Assembly: GCA_043803105.1 (NCBI GenBank)
Contig: JAZDKJ010000005.1
Location: 32,001-96,000 of the forward strand
DNA: 64,000 nucleotides
Source of the DNA: Candidatus Woesearchaeota archaeon
GTDB lineage: Archaea > Nanobdellota > Nanobdellia > Woesearchaeales > JAZDKJ01
Direction of reading: 5' to 3'
Part shown: positions 816 through 15,912 of the stretch, piece after piece
Position numbering within the stretch: position 1 is the first letter of the stretch
Layout: the number at the start of each line of letters is the position of its first letter
Translations under genes and position numbers: made by a program
The notes under the pieces: model-generated
What the model was told of the DNA's origin: nothing
Database searches by the model: none
What the model saw: the letters and a program-made list of their open reading frames with translations, nothing else

Positions 816-3110
816 ATGGTGTCCACAGCAGAAGTAATAAAGGCAAATGGCAAGCGTGAACCTTTTTCTGAAGAAAAGCTAAGCTTTGCACTGGCAAGGG
901 CTGATGTGCCGAAAAAAGATATAGACAGGATTGTAGCAGAAATAACACAGAAGGTGTACAATCTTATTCCAACAAGCCAGCTCAGAAAGTGGGTAATTGA
1001 TGAACTCGATAAGATAGACCCAAAATACAGCCATGGGTTCAAGTATAAGAAAAAAGAAGTCCATGTAGTAGGCGGTTTTGGGATATCACAGCTAAAAGAC
1101 GTCTATGAGACGTTCCAGAAGCAAAAAATCGTTGATTCTCTAATCAGGGAAACAGGCATGCCACAAGAGGTTGCGGAGGAAATAGCAAACGAAGCAGAGC
1201 ATTTCCTAATCGAGACAGACATACGAAACATCTCAGGATCGATGATCAGAGAGATAGTCAACTACATACTGATCTCAAGAAACCTGGAAAAGTATTATGC
1301 AGACTATACGAAGATCGGCATGCCTGTTTTTGAAATAACCAGACTGATGAGCAGAGCAAGCCATGACAACGCAAACCAGCAGTACAACCCGGAAACAGTG
1401 CACAAGCTAATCGCTGACACAATATCCAGGAGCTACTCACTCACAAAAGACCTGCCACAAAGGCTAAGGGACGCTCATATACATGGGGAGCTGCACATAC
1501 ATGACCTGGACTATTTTTCAACAAGACCTTTCTGCTTCTCTTATGACCTGAGGTTCTTCCTCCAGCATGGGCTAAAACCAGACGGAACTGGAGTACACGC
1601 TGCAATGGCTGGGCCGGCGCAAAGCGCATCAGTTGCAATACTTCATGCAGCAAAGATTTTGGCATGCGGCCAAGTCAATTGCGCAGGAGGCCAAGGATTC
1701 AACTGGTTCAATGTGATACTTGCTCCGTACCTGAGAGGGCTTGACTACAAGCAGATAAAGCAGATGGCGCAGATGTTCATATACGAAATGAGCATGATGT
1801 ATGTTTCGCGCGGAGGGCAGGTTGTATTTTCAAGCATAGACATAGAACCAGGAATACCGAAAACACTCGCAAACGTTCCAGCAGTGCAGCCAGGAGGAAA
1901 GGTAAGCGAGAGAGTAACTTACTCTGATTACCATGACGAAGCAAACAAGTTCTTCAGGGCAATCACAGAGGTGTACAACAAAGGAGACTTTAATGGCAAG
2001 CCTTTCAGCTTCCCAAAATATGAGCTAAAGGTCTCAAAGGAAGACTTCAGCAAATACCCTGAAGAGATGAGGCTTGTAAGCGAGCTAGCTGCAAAGAACG
2101 GCGCACCATACTATTTTGTGCAGCAAGACTATCTGCCAGAATACAGCTGCTACCAGTGCTGCGCATACCTGATGCCATTATCAGAACAGAACACAGACGA
2201 TGATGTTTTCAACGGGACAGTAAGGGGCGGAGGGCTTCAGGTGGTGACAATTAACCTGCCGCAAATAGCTTATGAGGCAAAGGGAAATGATGACAAATTA
2301 TTCACACTCCTCAGAGACCGCATGGACAAAGCAAAAGAAGTGATGCACATTAAACAGGAGATAATTCGAAGAAGAATGGAGCAAGGCCTGCTGCCATTCC
2401 TATCACAGCCTATAGACAACAAAGGCACCCCCTATCTACTAGTGGACAAACAGGGGCTGGAAATAGGAATGGTAGGCCTTAATGAAATGCTTAAGGCGCA
2501 CATAGGGAAGGAACTGCACGAAAGCAAAGAGGCATGGAGCTATGGGCTAAAAGTCATACAGAGAATGAAAGAAATCGCAGCAGAATACAAGAAAGAGACA
2601 GGATACCTTTTCGGAATATCAAGGACTCCGGCAGAGACAGCAGCATACAGGCTTGCAAAGATAGACATGAAAAAATACCCTAATGCTGTAGTGCAGGGAG
2701 ACAAGACAACAGAGGCTGTATATTACACAAACTCGACACACATAAGACCTAGCGCAAACGTTGCACTAGGTGAAAGGATAAAGACAGAGGGAAGCTTTCA
2801 TCCATTGCTTGACGCCGGCGCGATGAGCCATGTGTGGCTCGGAGAAGGAGCACCTGACCCAGAATCTATTACAAAACTTACTGAAAGAATAGCCAGGAAC
2901 ACACTTACAAGCTACTTCGCTTACACAAGAGACCTCACGATATGCAACAACTGCTTATTCACTGTCGCAGGGGTGCTGCACACATGCCCGAAGTGCAAGA
3001 GCAAAAACATAGACTGGCTATCAAGAATCACAGGATATTACCAAAGAGTAAGCACTTGGAACAAGGGAAAAAGACAGGAATTCCTTGATAGGCAGAGGTA
3101 CACCTTATGA
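816..3110 (+). CDS. nrdD: Anaerobic (class III) ribonucleoside-triphosphate reductase, paralog 1, with two N-terminal ATP-cone-like domains
   Basis: HIHDLDY..RPFC, GGQ, finger loop YQCC, TPAE, YYTNS, CxxC..CxxC Zn site and glycyl-radical motif SRITGYY. SD-like AGGTGAT lies just before ATG 816. Confidence 0.95.
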   Translation: MVSTAEVIKANGKREPFSEEKLSFALARADVPKKDIDRIVAEITQKVYNLIPTSQLRKWVIDELDKIDPKYSHGFKYKKKEVHVVGGFGISQLKDVYETFQKQKIVDSLIRETGMPQEVAEEIANEAEHFLIETDIRNISGSMIREIVNYILISRNLEKYYADYTKIGMPVFEITRLMSRASHDNANQQYNPETVHKLIADTISRSYSLTKDLPQRLRDAHIHGELHIHDLDYFSTRPFCFSYDLRFFLQHGLKPDGTGVHAAMAGPAQSASVAILHAAKILACGQVNCAGGQGFNWFNVILAPYLRGLDYKQIKQMAQMFIYEMSMMYVSRGGQVVFSSIDIEPGIPKTLANVPAVQPGGKVSERVTYSDYHDEANKFFRAITEVYNKGDFNGKPFSFPKYELKVSKEDFSKYPEEMRLVSELAAKNGAPYYFVQQDYLPEYSCYQCCAYLMPLSEQNTDDDVFNGTVRGGGLQVVTINLPQIAYEAKGNDDKLFTLLRDRMDKAKEVMHIKQEIIRRRMEQGLLPFLSQPIDNKGTPYLLVDKQGLEIGMVGLNEMLKAHIGKELHESKEAWSYGLKVIQRMKEIAAEYKKETGYLFGISRTPAETAAYRLAKIDMKKYPNAVVQGDKTTEAVYYTNSTHIRPSANVALGERIKTEGSFHPLLDAGAMSHVWLGEGAPDPESITKLTERIARNTLTSYFAYTRDLTICNNCLFTVAGVLHTCPKCKSKNIDWLSRITGYYQRVSTWNKGKRQEFLDRQRYTL

Positions 3111-4756
3111 ATCTCAAGCTGATCGAAGAAGAGCAGAGCTCTGACGGAAGAAAGGGATGGCCATGCGCAGTACATGACAGGATAGCCTACCCTAAAGAGA
3201 AAAAAGCGAGCGAAGCAAACGTTACTGTAACATTCCTATGGACAATGAGAGACGAGGTGCTGCCAAAACTAGAGAAAAAAAACCTAGCGCTTGCAAGCAA
3301 CTTCTACACGCCAGCCGGCCTTGTAGGCATGGTAAGGAACATACTTGGCAACCCATACATAAGGTATATAATATTGTTGGGTGAAGAATATGCATCGAGA
3401 GCAGCTGACGACCAGAAAACAGAATTGACATCAGCAAACGCGTTACGGGCATTCTTTGAGAAAGGGATTGACAAGGACAGAAGAATAGCGGGCTTTGAGA
3501 ACTCAGTGCACTTTGACAAGAACATACTTACAGAGATGATAGAACTAGTGAGAAAGAATGTGGCGCTGATCGACCTGAACAAGAAAATGCCCAAGGCAAG
3601 CTTGCTCGAGAAAATAAGCGAAGCAAACAGGTTGATAACCAGCCTTGAGAAAAAACCAGCTTTCATGGAAAAACCGGCTGTGTTTGAATATGAGAAAACA
3701 ACAGAGGCAATGCCTTACGAGGGAGGCCCAATAATCATACATGGCAATAAGATACCAGAAACATGGGTTGAGGTAATACACAATATATATAGGTACGGAA
3801 GGCCAAACCTGATGAACGCAAACACAGACAGGTGGGTAAAGGAAATCAACAATCTGGTGGCAATAATTCATGAACCACAAAGCATTGACTTAGCCCTGAA
3901 CCCGTTCCTTGTGCCGATGACAATGGAGAAAATCGAGGCGTACAAAAAGGAGGTATTATCACCAATACTTCCTGCAGGAAAGGCATACACCTACGGAAAC
4001 AAGCTAAGGGCATACACATGCCTAGGCCAAGACGTGAAGAGACTAAGGAATGCCACAGAATACAAGGACTTTGAGTTCGGGCAAGGGCCACATGTAGACG
4101 CAAATGTGAACTACATAGGAGAGATATGCGAGGTAGACCAGATAGCTGACATAGTAGAAGTGCTTAAAAGAGACCCTTACTCAAAGGCATGCGTAGCAAT
4201 CACATGGCATGTGCAGGACGAACTTATGAGAAAACACAAGAGCAGCCCGTGCCTTGCGATAATGCAGGCACTGGTGCAAGACGAAAGACTACAGCTAATG
4301 GTCTTTTTCAGGAGCCATGACATGGTACAGGGATGGCCAGAGAACGCTTACGGCTGCGCAGCAATACAAAAATTCATAGCAGACGGCATAGGAATTGAGA
4401 CTGGCTTACTCACAATAATATCAGGAAGCGCACACGTGTATGCACACTACTATGCGCAGGTAGAAGAGATGCTCAAGAAGCACAGAAGGCTTACGGTTGA
4501 CTACAAGGACCCAAGGGGAGACTACACGATAGATGTGAAAAACAAAAAAATAATTGCCACACTAGTTGATGCAAACAACGGGAAAGAGCTCGAAAGATTT
4601 GAGTCGGCAACAGCGCTCGAGTGCGCAAGAAAAATAACAGCAGCAAACAACTTCAACGCACAGCACGCAGCATACCTAGGGATAGAACTATCAAGAGCAG
4701 AACAAAGCATAAGAAACAACATTGCCTACAGGCAGGACGCAGAAGATGAAAGCTGA
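3107..4756 (+). CDS. thyA: Thymidylate synthase (ThyA fold) fused to an N-terminal MtrA-like domain and a C-terminal DUF4346-like domain
   Basis: ThyA motifs YTYG..LR, SPC (catalytic Cys), RSHD..GWPEN, SAHVY. N-terminal RNILGNPYIRYIILLG resembles MtrA. C-terminal DPRG..HAAYLGIELSRAE resembles DUF4346. Confidence 0.8.
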   Translation: MNLKLIEEEQSSDGRKGWPCAVHDRIAYPKEKKASEANVTVTFLWTMRDEVLPKLEKKNLALASNFYTPAGLVGMVRNILGNPYIRYIILLGEEYASRAADDQKTELTSANALRAFFEKGIDKDRRIAGFENSVHFDKNILTEMIELVRKNVALIDLNKKMPKASLLEKISEANRLITSLEKKPAFMEKPAVFEYEKTTEAMPYEGGPIIIHGNKIPETWVEVIHNIYRYGRPNLMNANTDRWVKEINNLVAIIHEPQSIDLALNPFLVPMTMEKIEAYKKEVLSPILPAGKAYTYGNKLRAYTCLGQDVKRLRNATEYKDFEFGQGPHVDANVNYIGEICEVDQIADIVEVLKRDPYSKACVAITWHVQDELMRKHKSSPCLAIMQALVQDERLQLMVFFRSHDMVQGWPENAYGCAAIQKFIADGIGIETGLLTIISGSAHVYAHYYAQVEEMLKKHRRLTVDYKDPRGDYTIDVKNKKIIATLVDANNGKELERFESATALECARKITAANNFNAQHAAYLGIELSRAEQSIRNNIAYRQDAEDES

Positions 4757-13322: not shown

Positions 13323-15083
13323 ATGAAAAAACAGCTAGCGTTAATGATTCTGTGCTTGTTGCTCTTGACAGGAGTTGCATCAGCAAAGCAAGGCCACCTT
13401 GTGCTCCTGGCAGTCCACCAGGAGGACGGAGAGCAAATAGGCGCAACAGCTGACCTTAACCTTGAGATAAAGCCTGGAAACGGCAACGTGTACCTAAATA
13501 CAGTACCGTTGACACGAATCGATACGCAGATTTCTACAAGATTTGCAAAAGACATAGCCTGTAGCTATCTTGACATGGACTGTAGGGGATATGATTTCTT
13601 CTACAGTATAAAAGCTGACTCGAGCATAGTAGGAGGACCAAGCGCTGGTGCGGCAACAACAGCACTCACAGTATTCCTCTTAAACAACATGAAGTATGAT
13701 GAAAAAATCATGGTAACAGGAACGATCAACTCAGGAGGAATAGTGGGGCCTATAGGCGGACTGGAGGCAAAGCTTCAGGCAGCATCAAAAGTCATCGGAG
13801 CCAAAAAGGTGCTAATACCAATGGGAGAGAGATTCATCAAGGAAGGAAACCAGACAAAAGACGCTGCGGTCTACGGCCAGAACCTCAGCCTTGAAGTTGT
13901 TGAGGTTGCAACAATAGATGATGTTGTGTACGAGTTCACAGGCAAACACATCAAGCCAAAAGAGCAAAACCTGACAATTGACCCAAGCTATCTTGACACA
14001 ATGAAAAACCTTGCAACACAGCTATGCAACAGAACGGGAATGCTAGCCAACCAAGCACAGGAGAAGACGGGGCTTGCCACAAGACTAGGAAAACCGTACA
14101 TAGACAATGTCAAAGCAGGAAAAAACCTGACAGCGAGGGGAAGGGTTGCAATCAACAACAGCTTCTATTATTCAGCAGCATCATACTGCTTTGGAGCAAA
14201 CGTCAGATACCAAGAGATCATACAAAGGACCCTAAACGGAAGCGAACTTGCAGATGCAATCAACGAAACAAATGAGAGCATCAAGATATTTGAAAAGGAA
14301 CTTGTGGCAAGGCAGTTGAATACTATAACAGACCTGCAGGCATTCATGGTTGCATCTGAGCGGCTAAATGAAGCAAAGGAGCAGCTCGGGCTGGCAGAAA
14401 GACAGAATAATAGTAAGGCAGAATATCTTGCGCTTGCAATAGAGAGGCTGCAGAGCTCACATGCATGGAGCAGGTTCTTTGGAAACTCTGGAAAAGAGTA
14501 TATACTAAACCAAGAGGTGCTAAAAGGCTCGTGCCTGGCAAAGATCGCGGAGGCTGAAGAGAGCTACCAGTATGCCACACTATACTTACCAAACCTGCTT
14601 GACTCAGCTGCAACAGATATCAGTGATGCGTACAAGTTCTTAGCCAACAAACAATATGCGCTCTGCCTTTCAAAGGCATCAAACGCAAAGGCAAACGCGA
14701 ACTCTGTCTTAGGCGTAATCGGCGTGCAGGAAGACCAAGTGGAAACATTGATCGACGAAAAGCTTGACGTAGGCAAACAGCTCATAATAAAACAGGCAAA
14801 AGACAACAGCTTCCCAATACTCGGATATAGCTACTGGGAATATGCAACTTCGCTCAAGGCTTATGATAAGTATTCAGCACTACTGTATTCTGAATATGCG
14901 CTGGAGCTCTCAAACCTGGACATATATTTCCAGAAAAAACAGATGATAAAGATTGAGATAGACCCGACCTTTTACTGGGTGTTTGCACTCGGATTATTCA
15001 GCGGGATACTCATTGGTTGGAGAATCAAGGCAGGGCATCGCAGCGGGAAGAGTAATAGGAGCCGCAAGGTTGGGAAAAAATAA
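13323..15083 (+). CDS. Archaeal Lon-like (S16) serine protease, secreted and membrane-anchored
   Basis: Signal peptide, GGPSAG catalytic Ser, TGTIN.GG.VGPIGG..AK catalytic Lys, C-terminal TM helix. Confidence 0.88.
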   Translation: MKKQLALMILCLLLLTGVASAKQGHLVLLAVHQEDGEQIGATADLNLEIKPGNGNVYLNTVPLTRIDTQISTRFAKDIACSYLDMDCRGYDFFYSIKADSSIVGGPSAGAATTALTVFLLNNMKYDEKIMVTGTINSGGIVGPIGGLEAKLQAASKVIGAKKVLIPMGERFIKEGNQTKDAAVYGQNLSLEVVEVATIDDVVYEFTGKHIKPKEQNLTIDPSYLDTMKNLATQLCNRTGMLANQAQEKTGLATRLGKPYIDNVKAGKNLTARGRVAINNSFYYSAASYCFGANVRYQEIIQRTLNGSELADAINETNESIKIFEKELVARQLNTITDLQAFMVASERLNEAKEQLGLAERQNNSKAEYLALAIERLQSSHAWSRFFGNSGKEYILNQEVLKGSCLAKIAEAEESYQYATLYLPNLLDSAATDISDAYKFLANKQYALCLSKASNAKANANSVLGVIGVQEDQVETLIDEKLDVGKQLIIKQAKDNSFPILGYSYWEYATSLKAYDKYSALLYSEYALELSNLDIYFQKKQMIKIEIDPTFYWVFALGLFSGILIGWRIKAGHRSGKSNRSRKVGKK

Positions 15084-15305
15084 CAGAATGATTATAAAAC
15101 CCAACTCGCAAGCTTTTTTTGCTCACGCAAAAAAACCTTGGAAAAATAACCAATGATTATAAAACCCAACAAGCATCTCCGAAGAGATGCTCGTCGGGAA
15201 AAAGAGGTGATCATGAAGGGTTTTTAAAACCCGGCAGCCACCCTTTGCAGGACAGCTGCAGGGAAAAAGAGGTGATAGATTGTGAAGCACCCCCAACCCT
15301 ATCTT
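15066..15305 (-). ncRNA. Candidate structured non-coding RNA: three-hairpin array with a terminal closing stem
   Basis: Three 14-15 bp stems capped by GCAA, C(UUCG)G and GUGA. G-U pairs work only on the minus strand. The 5' and 3' ends are complementary, and a BRE/TATA lies upstream. Confidence 0.7.
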
Positions 15306-15327
15306 TACTATAGAGTGGTATAACTAA

Positions 15328-15342
15328 TATATAAACTTTTCG
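15328..15342 (-). promoter_or_regulatory. BRE-TATA promoter (CGAAAAG TTTATATA) for the candidate ncRNA
   Basis: Matches the archaeal BRE/TATA consensus about 30 nt upstream of the structured region; no convincing minus-strand ORF follows. Confidence 0.65.
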
Positions 15343-15387
15343 ATGTTGTATCATTCAAAAGTGGTAACTAAGTAATACTATTTCATA

Positions 15388-15912
15388 ATGAAACAAACTC
15401 AATGCCTAAAATGCCACAGAAAGGCAGAGGCTCTTCTGCTTTGCAGAGCCTGCTTTGGCACAACAATAGAGAAAAGAATAAGGAAATATGTCAGAATCAA
15501 CAAGATATTCTCAAGGGGTGACAGAATAGCAGCAATAGGAGAGATAAACCAGTACCTAATTCCAAGAATAATCCCTGGGTTGCCTGTAAGGATATTCAAG
15601 AAAGAGCAAAAAGGGACAAAGGTTATAAGGAACTGGACAGCAGATGATGAGGCATGCGCGTTCCTTGAACAGGTGTTTACAGGAAAAAAGAGCAAGAGAC
15701 CACTGTCAATAGTGAATTGGACTACTGACAAAGAACTTGAGAGCTTTGCGAAATTCAAGGGCTTGAAGTTCAAGCCAAACAAGAAAAACCAGGATATACT
15801 TAAAATGTTAAACACACTTGAAGAAAAACACCCTGAAACAAAATTCTCCCTGATAAAGAGCAGCCAAGAACTGGAAAGGATTGGGATAAAGCGGAAAAAA
15901 TTGATTTCTTAA
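15388..15912 (+). CDS. Truncated TtuA/Ncs6-like protein with the Zn finger kept and the PP-loop absent
   Basis: CLKC..CRAC, IEKRIRKYVR, TADDEA, RPL, LEEKHPETKFS; no SGGKDS motif. Confidence 0.6.
   Translation: MKQTQCLKCHRKAEALLLCRACFGTTIEKRIRKYVRINKIFSRGDRIAAIGEINQYLIPRIIPGLPVRIFKKEQKGTKVIRNWTADDEACAFLEQVFTGKKSKRPLSIVNWTTDKELESFAKFKGLKFKPNKKNQDILKMLNTLEEKHPETKFSLIKSSQELERIGIKRKKLIS

Follow-up and report, generated by a model that had tools for sequence, protein, structure and literature searches.

In the CsrB/RsmZ RNAs, a short invariant motif (GGA) placed in hairpin loops binds CsrA, and its copy number varies by lineage. SscA of the Thermococcales is an archaeal small RNA of unknown function. 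To our knowledge, almost no RNA is conserved class-wide in archaea beyond ribosomal RNA (rRNA), transfer RNA (tRNA), RNase P RNA, signal recognition particle (SRP) RNA and the guide small RNAs (sRNAs), and we know of no regulation by RNA in the uncultured DPANN archaea with their reduced genomes. RsaE/RoxS of Bacillota is reported to bind the Shine-Dalgarno (SD) sequences of mRNAs, initiation complexes being blocked as a result (PMC6158497), and the intergenic sRNA41 and sRNA154 of Methanosarcina mazei are described as putative repressors of translation that would pair with ribosome binding sites (PMC5867862). Here we investigated 64,000 nucleotides of a Candidatus Woesearchaeota archaeon genome (GCA_043803105.1, contig JAZDKJ010000005.1, positions 32,001 to 96,000), hereafter called the window, in which a spacer between two plus-strand genes is the site of an RNA gene on the minus strand (Table 1). 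Its units join a copy of the anti-SD tail of 16S rRNA to a stable hairpin, and we are confident that this is a real, conserved and structured small-RNA gene. RsaE/RoxS and the two M. mazei sRNAs would be its closest functional analogues.

The likeness to RsaE/RoxS, as far as that report describes them, lies in repeated, identical, unpaired and pyrimidine-rich anti-SD motifs, in conservation over a large clade and in a terminal hairpin with a U tail. Unlike RsaE/RoxS, the element is archaeal, shows no homology to them in sequence or structure and has no Rfam match, and its motif is not CCCC but the exact 16S tail AUCACCUC with a U run, placed in linkers between clamp hairpins. The M. mazei sRNAs are of species or genus level, with defined regulons and experimental support, whereas the Woesearchaeota RNA is class-wide, modular (1-3 units) and known from sequence. 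With CsrB/RsmZ it shares a modular build in which an invariant motif is repeated between variable hairpins, but here the motif sits in the linkers. The 3' end of 16S rRNA offers the identical AUCACCUC, a U run in the pre-rRNA trailer of the clade and an adjacent stable tetraloop hairpin; the units differ from it in lying outside the rRNA operon, in the reversed order of hairpin and tail within the unit, and in the last C of CCUCC, which is U in 83 of 83 units.

Loci of the Lon-like gene that converges on the RNA gene were collected from 40 relatives, each from another family of the same order. In nearly all of them a unit lies 3' of the Lon-like gene on the opposite strand and has the form AUCACCUCUUUUUCCC, a hairpin of unrelated sequence and GGGUUUAUAAUCA, with CGAAAGnTTTATATA before. 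R1, a covariance model for a single unit (62 positions, 15 pairs, built from 29 units), matched 26 of 30 Lon-adjacent loci from relatives, with 32 strong matches. Sampled evenly across the order (Woesearchaeota), 139 of 151 genomes matched, a tally that takes in three unpublished genomes (G112, G121 and G132), as did 106 of the 115 order genomes with a completeness of at least 90%. A phylum-wide sample gave matches in 138 of 151 genomes, and of its 34 genomes belonging to the class's other orders 28 matched. Divergent units are present in two families that had been scored as missing or weak, consisting of CUCACCUCUUUUCC and a longer hairpin behind a promoter in G047 and of UUCGCCUCUUUUACC in G093. 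Among named Woesearchaeota loci, an R1 unit was found in the fetched flank of the Lon-like gene in 64 of 80 (62 convergent). Public records with the same gene pair belong to Candidatus Woesearchaeota, Nanoarchaeota or Nanoarchaeia; they were recovered with an alignment as query, while a single Lon-like protein as query gave none.

The family unit is a single-stranded tract, (A/U)AUCACCUCUUUU(U), followed by a hairpin of 12-16 bp closed by CCC/GGG and then by GGGUUU(U)AUAAUCA. In the 83 units aligned, CACCUCUUUU is invariant (83/83), the preceding AU, the hairpin feet (CCC/GGG) and GGGUUU are near-invariant, and the hairpin interior varies freely save for a purine-rich 5' arm. Variation in unit number and structural conservation at orthologous loci had been set out as tests by an earlier reading made from the DNA letters alone (the sequence-only reading), and both were observed: 66 of 86 Lon-adjacent loci have one unit, 19 have two and 1 has three, and the hairpin covaries. 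The window genome has two intact and two decayed units where most genomes have a single one. Since most relatives' loci carry one unit, the 65-nt array of the window is a lineage-specific expansion of a single-unit RNA.

Covariation was measured on the same 83 units aligned to R1, an alignment fitted to the model and thus favouring the structure. Standard pairs occupy 90.0% of the cells (65.3% in shuffles), 14 of the 15 pairs show changes on both sides, and the covariation score is 0.743 against 0.267 in shuffles; for four of the five measures 0 of 500 shuffles were as good, and for the fifth 1 of 500. When the partner was slid by 1-3 columns as a control, pairing fell to 31-59%. The size of the effect and the failure of the slid controls make an alignment artefact unlikely. 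G-U and U-G pairs are far in excess of A-C and C-A pairs (166 versus 31), and therefore the pairing RNA is the minus strand of the window. Counting by hand, we also recovered the five G-U pairs that had been noticed in hairpins A and B (3 + 2).

The promoter is oriented in the same way. We sought a strict B recognition element (BRE)/TATA pattern, GAAAn(1-3)TTWAWATA, up to 190 nt upstream of the unit at 86 loci; it was present on the RNA strand in 71, while that stretch gave 0/86 on its opposite strand and the downstream sequence gave 0/86. A minus-strand RNA gene with a promoter of its own, as the sequence-only reading had it, is thereby supported. Palindromic-type boxes flank the BRE/TATA at orthologous loci and at mRNA promoters of the window genome, and they are probably bound by a transcription factor, general or global, of the clade. 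These imperfect palindromes (TACYACTCTA|TAGAGTRGTA(AC)) stand on one or both sides of the BRE/TATA and were observed at 15305-15320 and 15355-15368 of the window and at G000:C6:436030, C6:451514, C8:2567 and C12:124081. At the C8 site (G000:C8, ~2540-2567, minus strand), the ATG of a gene comes directly after the promoter-proximal box and ~20 nt past TTTTAAATA, so that the gene is apparently leaderless. This position points to a transcription start immediately behind the box, and by analogy the RNA of the window would start at ~15303-15308. In the two loci of other order that were read, the promoter lies ~20 nt before UUAUCACCUC; the tract is therefore at the extreme 5' end there, followed by the hairpin and the U tail, an arrangement known from classical seed-type sRNAs.

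Table 1. Coordinates of the RNA gene and its neighbours in the window, listed in the direction of the minus strand.
Feature	Position	Strand	Remarks
174-aa protein, N-terminal CxxC...CxxC	15388..15912	+	divergent; common promoter region with the RNA gene
Upstream promoter box GTTACCACTTTTGA	15355..15368	-	half-palindrome of type TACYACTCTA|TAGAGTRGTA, sequence read directly; putative factor-binding site
BRE/TATA CGAAAAG-TTTATATA	15342-15328	-	oriented to the minus strand
Box proximal to the transcription start, TACCACTCTATAGTAA	15305..15320	-	sequence and same-genus locus compared
5' motif AGGGUUGGGGG	15300-15290	-	sequence read directly
SD-like GGGGGUG of the 5' leader	15288..15294	-	predicted partner of the first anti-SD tract
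Anti-SD tract 1, AUCACCUCUUUUU	15264..15276	-	core AUCACCUC at 15276-15269, then U5 and CCC
Hairpin A, GCAA loop, 3 G-U pairs	15230..15263	-	R1 match of 56.2 bits
Anti-SD tract 2, AUCACCUCUUUUU	15199..15211	-	core AUCACCUC at 15211-15204, then U5 and CCC
Hairpin B, 15 bp, UUCG loop, 2 G-U pairs	15165..15198	-	R1 match of 66.1 bits
Degenerate linker 3, UUUUAUAAUCAUUGGUUAUUUUUC	15141..15164	-	CACCUC core lost; without R1 match
Hairpin C, U7/A7 arms, GUGA loop	15109..15140	-	T7 readable on both strands
Degenerate linker 4, GUUGGGUUUUAUAAUCAUUCUGUUAUUUUUU, with T6 at its end (15080-15075)	15075..15108	-	antisense to the last Lon-like codons; likely RNA 3' end region
Lon_C-domain protein, 586 aa	13323..15083	+	convergent; Pfam Lon_C, E = 5.7e-08

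Read on the minus strand from 15342 to 15075, the locus consists of the BRE/TATA, two AUCACCUCUUUUUCCC-[hairpin]-GGGUUUU units at a spacing of 65 nt and two degenerate units around a third hairpin. The BRE/TATA, the 5' motif, the anti-SD linkers and hairpins A, B and C with the loops GCAA, UUCG and GUGA all lie where the sequence-only reading had placed them. The 65-nt periodicity that it reported came out of the repeat search as well, with TTATAAAACCC / TTTTAAAACCC at 15092, 15157 and 15222 (copies TTA/TTAAAACCC), together with further direct repeats (GGGAAAAAGAGGTGAT, starting at 15196 and 15261, and one of 24 nt at 15087 and 15152); hairpins B and C came out as inverted repeats. GGGUUUU is found directly 3' of every hairpin (A, B and C). 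An architecture of hairpins with anti-SD sequences in the linkers is supported, but three equivalent hairpins are not: linkers 3 and 4 (AAUCAUUGGUUAUUUUU and AAUCAUUCUGUUAUUUUUU) have lost the CACCUC core that units 1 and 2 keep intact, no AUCACCUC precedes hairpin C, and C with its linkers forms degenerate, terminator-like units.

The stop codon of the Lon-like open reading frame (ORF; 15081-15083) directly adjoins the last T6 run. Since its U7/A7 arms give T7 on both strands, 32 nt past the Lon stop, hairpin C is probably a bidirectional terminator common to the RNA gene and the convergent Lon-like gene. The RNA gene would extend from ~15305 to a U tract somewhere in 15146-15075. The array is unique within the 1.56-Mb genome (13 contigs), except for a 36-nt copy of hairpin C with 92% identity at C12:181547. 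This copy lies in the body of a ~240-nt stretch (L002 1370-1610; G000:C12, ~181416-181656) that starts with GGGGACGTAGCTTAGCC and ends with GCGTCCCCA, resembling the ends of a tRNA. Neither ARAGORN nor Rfam gave a match to this stretch, which may be a multi-intron tRNA or an RNA of a kind not known.

The predicted folding exceeds chance, with a minimum free energy (MFE) of -93.3 kcal/mol on the minus strand (z = -6.06, a value reached by 0 of 200 shuffles) and of -75.4 kcal/mol (z = -4.74) on the plus strand. According to the MFE structure and the pair probabilities, the CACCUC of tract 1 is paired (probability of being unpaired ~0) and tract 2 is mostly open (mean probability 0.72). The 5' leader, from ~10 to more than 100 nt long across the loci, often includes an SD-like stretch (GGGGGUG, GUGAUA) that could form a duplex with the first AUCACCUC. 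At most 5 of 100 shuffles equalled this duplex in 23 of 79 loci, and at the window locus itself 8 of 100 shuffles were as good. The stem proposed by the sequence-only reading to close the whole molecule was rejected as a feature of the family: it is thermodynamically possible, with a pair probability of ~0.27 and a cost of 1.6 kcal/mol when forced (-90.1 versus -91.7 kcal/mol for the MFE fold), but it is not part of the MFE structure, and by eye no counterpart was seen in the same-genus locus.

Searches against Rfam 15, which covers tRNA, SRP, RNase P and the C/D and H/ACA sRNAs among others, gave no matches at the gathering thresholds over the whole window and none on 11 related loci. When all 4227 families were run with cmscan on positions 14800-15600 with E values up to 10, only three weak matches appeared, mir-3747, tsr26 and RAGATH-32, with 21.3, 20.3 and 14.8 bits against gathering scores of 63, 141 and 41.8. 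The likeness to SscA that had been suggested therefore finds no counterpart among these matches, the presence of that family in the library being unchecked. ARAGORN detected no tRNA or transfer-messenger RNA in the window or in L002, and the SRP RNA and RNase P RNA of the genome are both on contig C12, away from the array, in agreement with the earlier statement that the array matches none of these classes. Full-text searches for a prior description, supplements being outside the search, found none of this RNA, and a term search of two 2026 preprints mapping prokaryotic non-coding sequence, again without their supplements, gave no mention of Woesearchaeota, Nanoarchaeota or DPANN. Small regulatory RNAs are a known kind of element; an RNA family with a modular display of the 16S tail and class-wide reach appears to be new. 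Its presence in about nine of ten sampled genomes, the strong oriented promoter, the invariant anti-SD copy and a paralogue beside genes for factors of the 16S 3' end make it notable, and the family suggests an undescribed control of translation or ribosome maturation. The small RNA is a testable handle on how translation initiation or ribosome maturation is tuned in Woesearchaeota, and the covariance model of the unit is ready for annotating genomes of the group.

The 16S gene of the window genome (contig C8) ends with GGAUCACCUCCU, followed by U8, and in relatives at least 4 U follow CCUCC in 17 of 20 archaeal-type 16S ends. The tract of the unit corresponds to this anti-SD tail with its U trailer, the sole difference being CCUCU for CCUCC. 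The 16S gene itself is interrupted in L033 (G000:C8:148605-153202, ~3030-3845), where it breaks off after CACACACCG, gives way to an insertion of ~800 nt and resumes at GCCCGTCAAACC. The insertion contains an ORF with the motif GLVDGEGSF, which we take to be LAGLIDADG-like, and the 16S-23S spacer of the same locus holds a tRNA-like gene, apparently with inserts.

Complements of the tract were sought as candidate targets. The complement GAGGTGAT is present 37 times in the window genome, and for the 14-mer complement GGGAAAAAGAGGTG 41 genomes gave 40 sites, against 1 for the reversed control; tallied against R1 coordinates, 31 of these 40 sites are within the RNA genes and 9 elsewhere. One of the extra sites (C5 139381-139394; L214 ~2382-2395) is in the leader of an operon for a 94-aa protein and a P-type ATPase, with a same-genus counterpart in L215 (G001:C165). 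In this leader, GGGAAAAAGAGGTGT lies within a loop closed by CUUCUUGC/GCAAGAAG, and the 15-nt block is the longest piece of the 5' untranslated region conserved between the two genus genomes, the flanking hairpins having diverged. We regard this leader as a candidate target of the small RNA. The extra sites of L217 (G010:C2 ~137877) and L221 (G039:C39 ~2379) are orthologous and belong to a conserved non-coding element that separates a 137-aa gene from the one after it and comprises a hairpin, the 14-mer CACCUCUUUUUCCC (on the other strand, its complement) and a stem CUCCCUGU/ACAGGGAG around GGGGGUGGUU. In L213 (~2057-2070; G000:C10:30356-30369), an exact 14-mer is found in the leader preceding a gene for a small membrane protein, partly paired in a local hairpin (AAAAGAGGU/ACCUCUUUU); a neighbouring 428-aa ORF is, by eye, tyrosine recombinase-like.

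In addition to the Lon-adjacent loci, many genomes contain further R1 matches, of which 20 loci were fetched. A second locus type emerged in eight other genomes (L058, L064, L065, L069, L071, L073, L074 and L077), with the order RIO1 kinase gene, divergent promoter, UAAACACCUCUUUUCCC-hairpin, AAUCACCUCUUUUUCCC-hairpin and Toprim (DnaG-like) gene. RIO1 was found in 8/8 of the second-type loci tested and Toprim in 7/9. A gene of KH_1/KH_PNO1 type is located 3' of rio1 in L077 and, by tblastn, in 4/9 loci, the others being short-flanked. An extra promoter and a conserved GC-rich leader were observed between the RNA and dnaG at these paralogous loci. Rio1 and Pno1/Dim2 are described as acting at the 3' end of 18S/16S rRNA (PMC4231747, PMC3326319), and one of these papers reports that archaeal Nob1 cleaves in vitro D-site sequences held in a loop between stable stems (PMC3326319). 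The window genome has Rio1, a Dim2/Pno1-like KH protein and an LSM gene. With filters off, no unit was found beside its own rio1, and the genome, which is 96% complete, gave no PIN_6 (Nob1-type) domain, although the model matched all 4 archaeal controls; the Nob1 zinc ribbon PF08772 had no match anywhere, controls included.

We tentatively favour a trans-acting regulator with an anti-SD seed, since the invariant tract is open, is accompanied by a clamp hairpin and a U tail, is 5'-terminal in the minimal forms and is itself an anti-SD sequence. The invariance of CACCUCUUUU and the open tract 2 agree with the structure of sRNAs of this type. The tract would be a seed kept open by the clamp hairpin and would pair with purine-rich SD-type sequences (GGGAAAAAGAGGUGAU-like) in mRNA leaders, blocking or modulating their use, while in some lineages, the window genome included, the SD-like GGGGGUG of the 5' end would mask the first seed. 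The U5-hairpin-U4 layout could recruit an Sm-like protein; the sequence has the U-rich tract, stable hairpin and 3' U tail that an Sm/Hfq-dependent sRNA would have, and the genome has an LSM gene. Several observations weigh against this seed. The complement in the C5 leader is restricted to the genus, being found at 2 of 20 orthologous loci and absent from the 18 more distant ones, and most of the other extra 14-mer sites are of uncertain orientation, one lying within a coding sequence. A crude count, with a rough choice of start codons, gave an SD of at least 6 nt in only ~141 of 1358 long ORFs, and in the same count no GGGAAAAAG consensus was seen in the bases upstream of GGTGA; with the leaderless gene on C8, the small number of strong SDs suggests a mixed regime of leaderless and SD-led translation. 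Generic SD pairing requires only CACCUC, which leaves the invariance of UUUU(U)CCC unexplained, and the CCC of the seed doubles as the hairpin base. LSM is present in 30/30 genomes irrespective of R1 match, so there is no phylogenetic-profile signal, and the rio1 and KH/PNO1-like neighbours of the paralogous locus speak for the main rival of the seed.

This rival, which owes its rank to the paralogous locus adjoining rio1-dim2, sees in the RNA a stand-alone imitation of the pre-16S 3' end (helix 45, anti-SD tail and trailer) that would engage Rio1, Dim2/Pno1 and the D-site nuclease; we find it doubtful. The mimic may be a decoy or regulator, or may be cut at D-like sites into hairpin units of ~65 nt with an anti-SD 3' tail, and AUCACCUC-UUUUU matches the whole junction of 16S tail and trailer. 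It accounts for the invariant U run and for the rio1-KH neighbourhood, with the divergent RIO1 gene at all eight second-type loci, better than the seed does, and the loop-presented cleavage reported for Nob1 is in line with it. However, the last 16S C is replaced by U without exception, the hairpin is 3' of the tract in the unit whereas helix 45 is 5' of it in 16S, rio1 of the window genome has no unit beside it, no Nob1-type PIN_6 was found there, and for an RNA gene the genes nearby count as weak evidence. The substituted C, the position outside the rRNA operon and the different hairpin order also led us to reject an actual 16S 3' end or D-site substrate (GGAUCACCUCC and trailer below helix 45). 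Quite unlikely, in our estimate, is the specific proposal of a dedicated small RNA imitating the unprocessed 16S 3' end (hairpin, AUCACCUC and U trailer), which would titrate or time the last maturation of the small subunit or yield units competing with ribosomes for SD-led mRNAs. If true, either variant of the imitation would be a translation control not known in any domain. We judge it unlikely that the RNA serves as a scaffold or sponge for protein (CsrB/RsmZ-like, or an Sm-type ribonucleoprotein) whose anti-SD likeness is incidental or whose protein also binds the 16S tail. The invariance spans the tract and both hairpin feet (CCC/GGG, GGGUUU) like a footprint, the loci have 1-3 units, an LSM gene is present, and a stable hairpin with U-rich sequence to either side of it is reminiscent of the Hfq/Sm binding module; yet LSM, the only partner tried, is universal and no partner has a matching phylogenetic profile, and a chance identity of 8 nt to the 16S tail is improbable given its invariance. 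The RNA may serve any of the three functions put forward by the sequence-only reading, namely an Sm-type scaffold, an SD-sequestering regulator and a precursor cut into units.

[quoted passage not shown] Such elements would explain why hairpin C has T7 on both strands shortly after the Lon stop, why some units read hairpin-GGGAAAAAGAGGUGAU-(ATG) on the plus strand and why the period of 65 nt is CRISPR-like, but for the canonical units this explanation is largely refuted by the minus-strand excess of G-U pairs and by the oriented promoter that the controls lack. Units also occur with no Lon-like gene nearby (beside rio1 and in other orders), and canonical hairpins are not followed by a plus-strand T run. 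By eye, no conserved ORF follows the plus-strand SD, and small plus-strand ORFs, rejected as candidates, have neither a conserved start nor a conserved frame across the relatives' loci. An intrinsic or bidirectional terminator was dismissed for the canonical units on account of the oriented BRE/TATA and of their occurrence away from convergent genes. A CRISPR array was likewise dismissed, there being just 2 intact and 2 decayed repeats in the window, spacers that are covarying hairpins and a single unit at most loci (66/86) and in most genomes; cas genes were not sought.

On the other side of the RNA gene, the 174-aa protein matched no Pfam family. It showed a single, faint similarity, to the C-terminal part of the tRNA 2-thiolation protein NcsA (E = 0.0028; 16.8 bits, far short of the cut-off of 500). 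It looks like a zinc-finger protein of NcsA/TtuA type in which no PP-loop can be recognised. Synteny between the RNA gene and homologues of this ORF was seen, by eye, at many of the orthologous loci.

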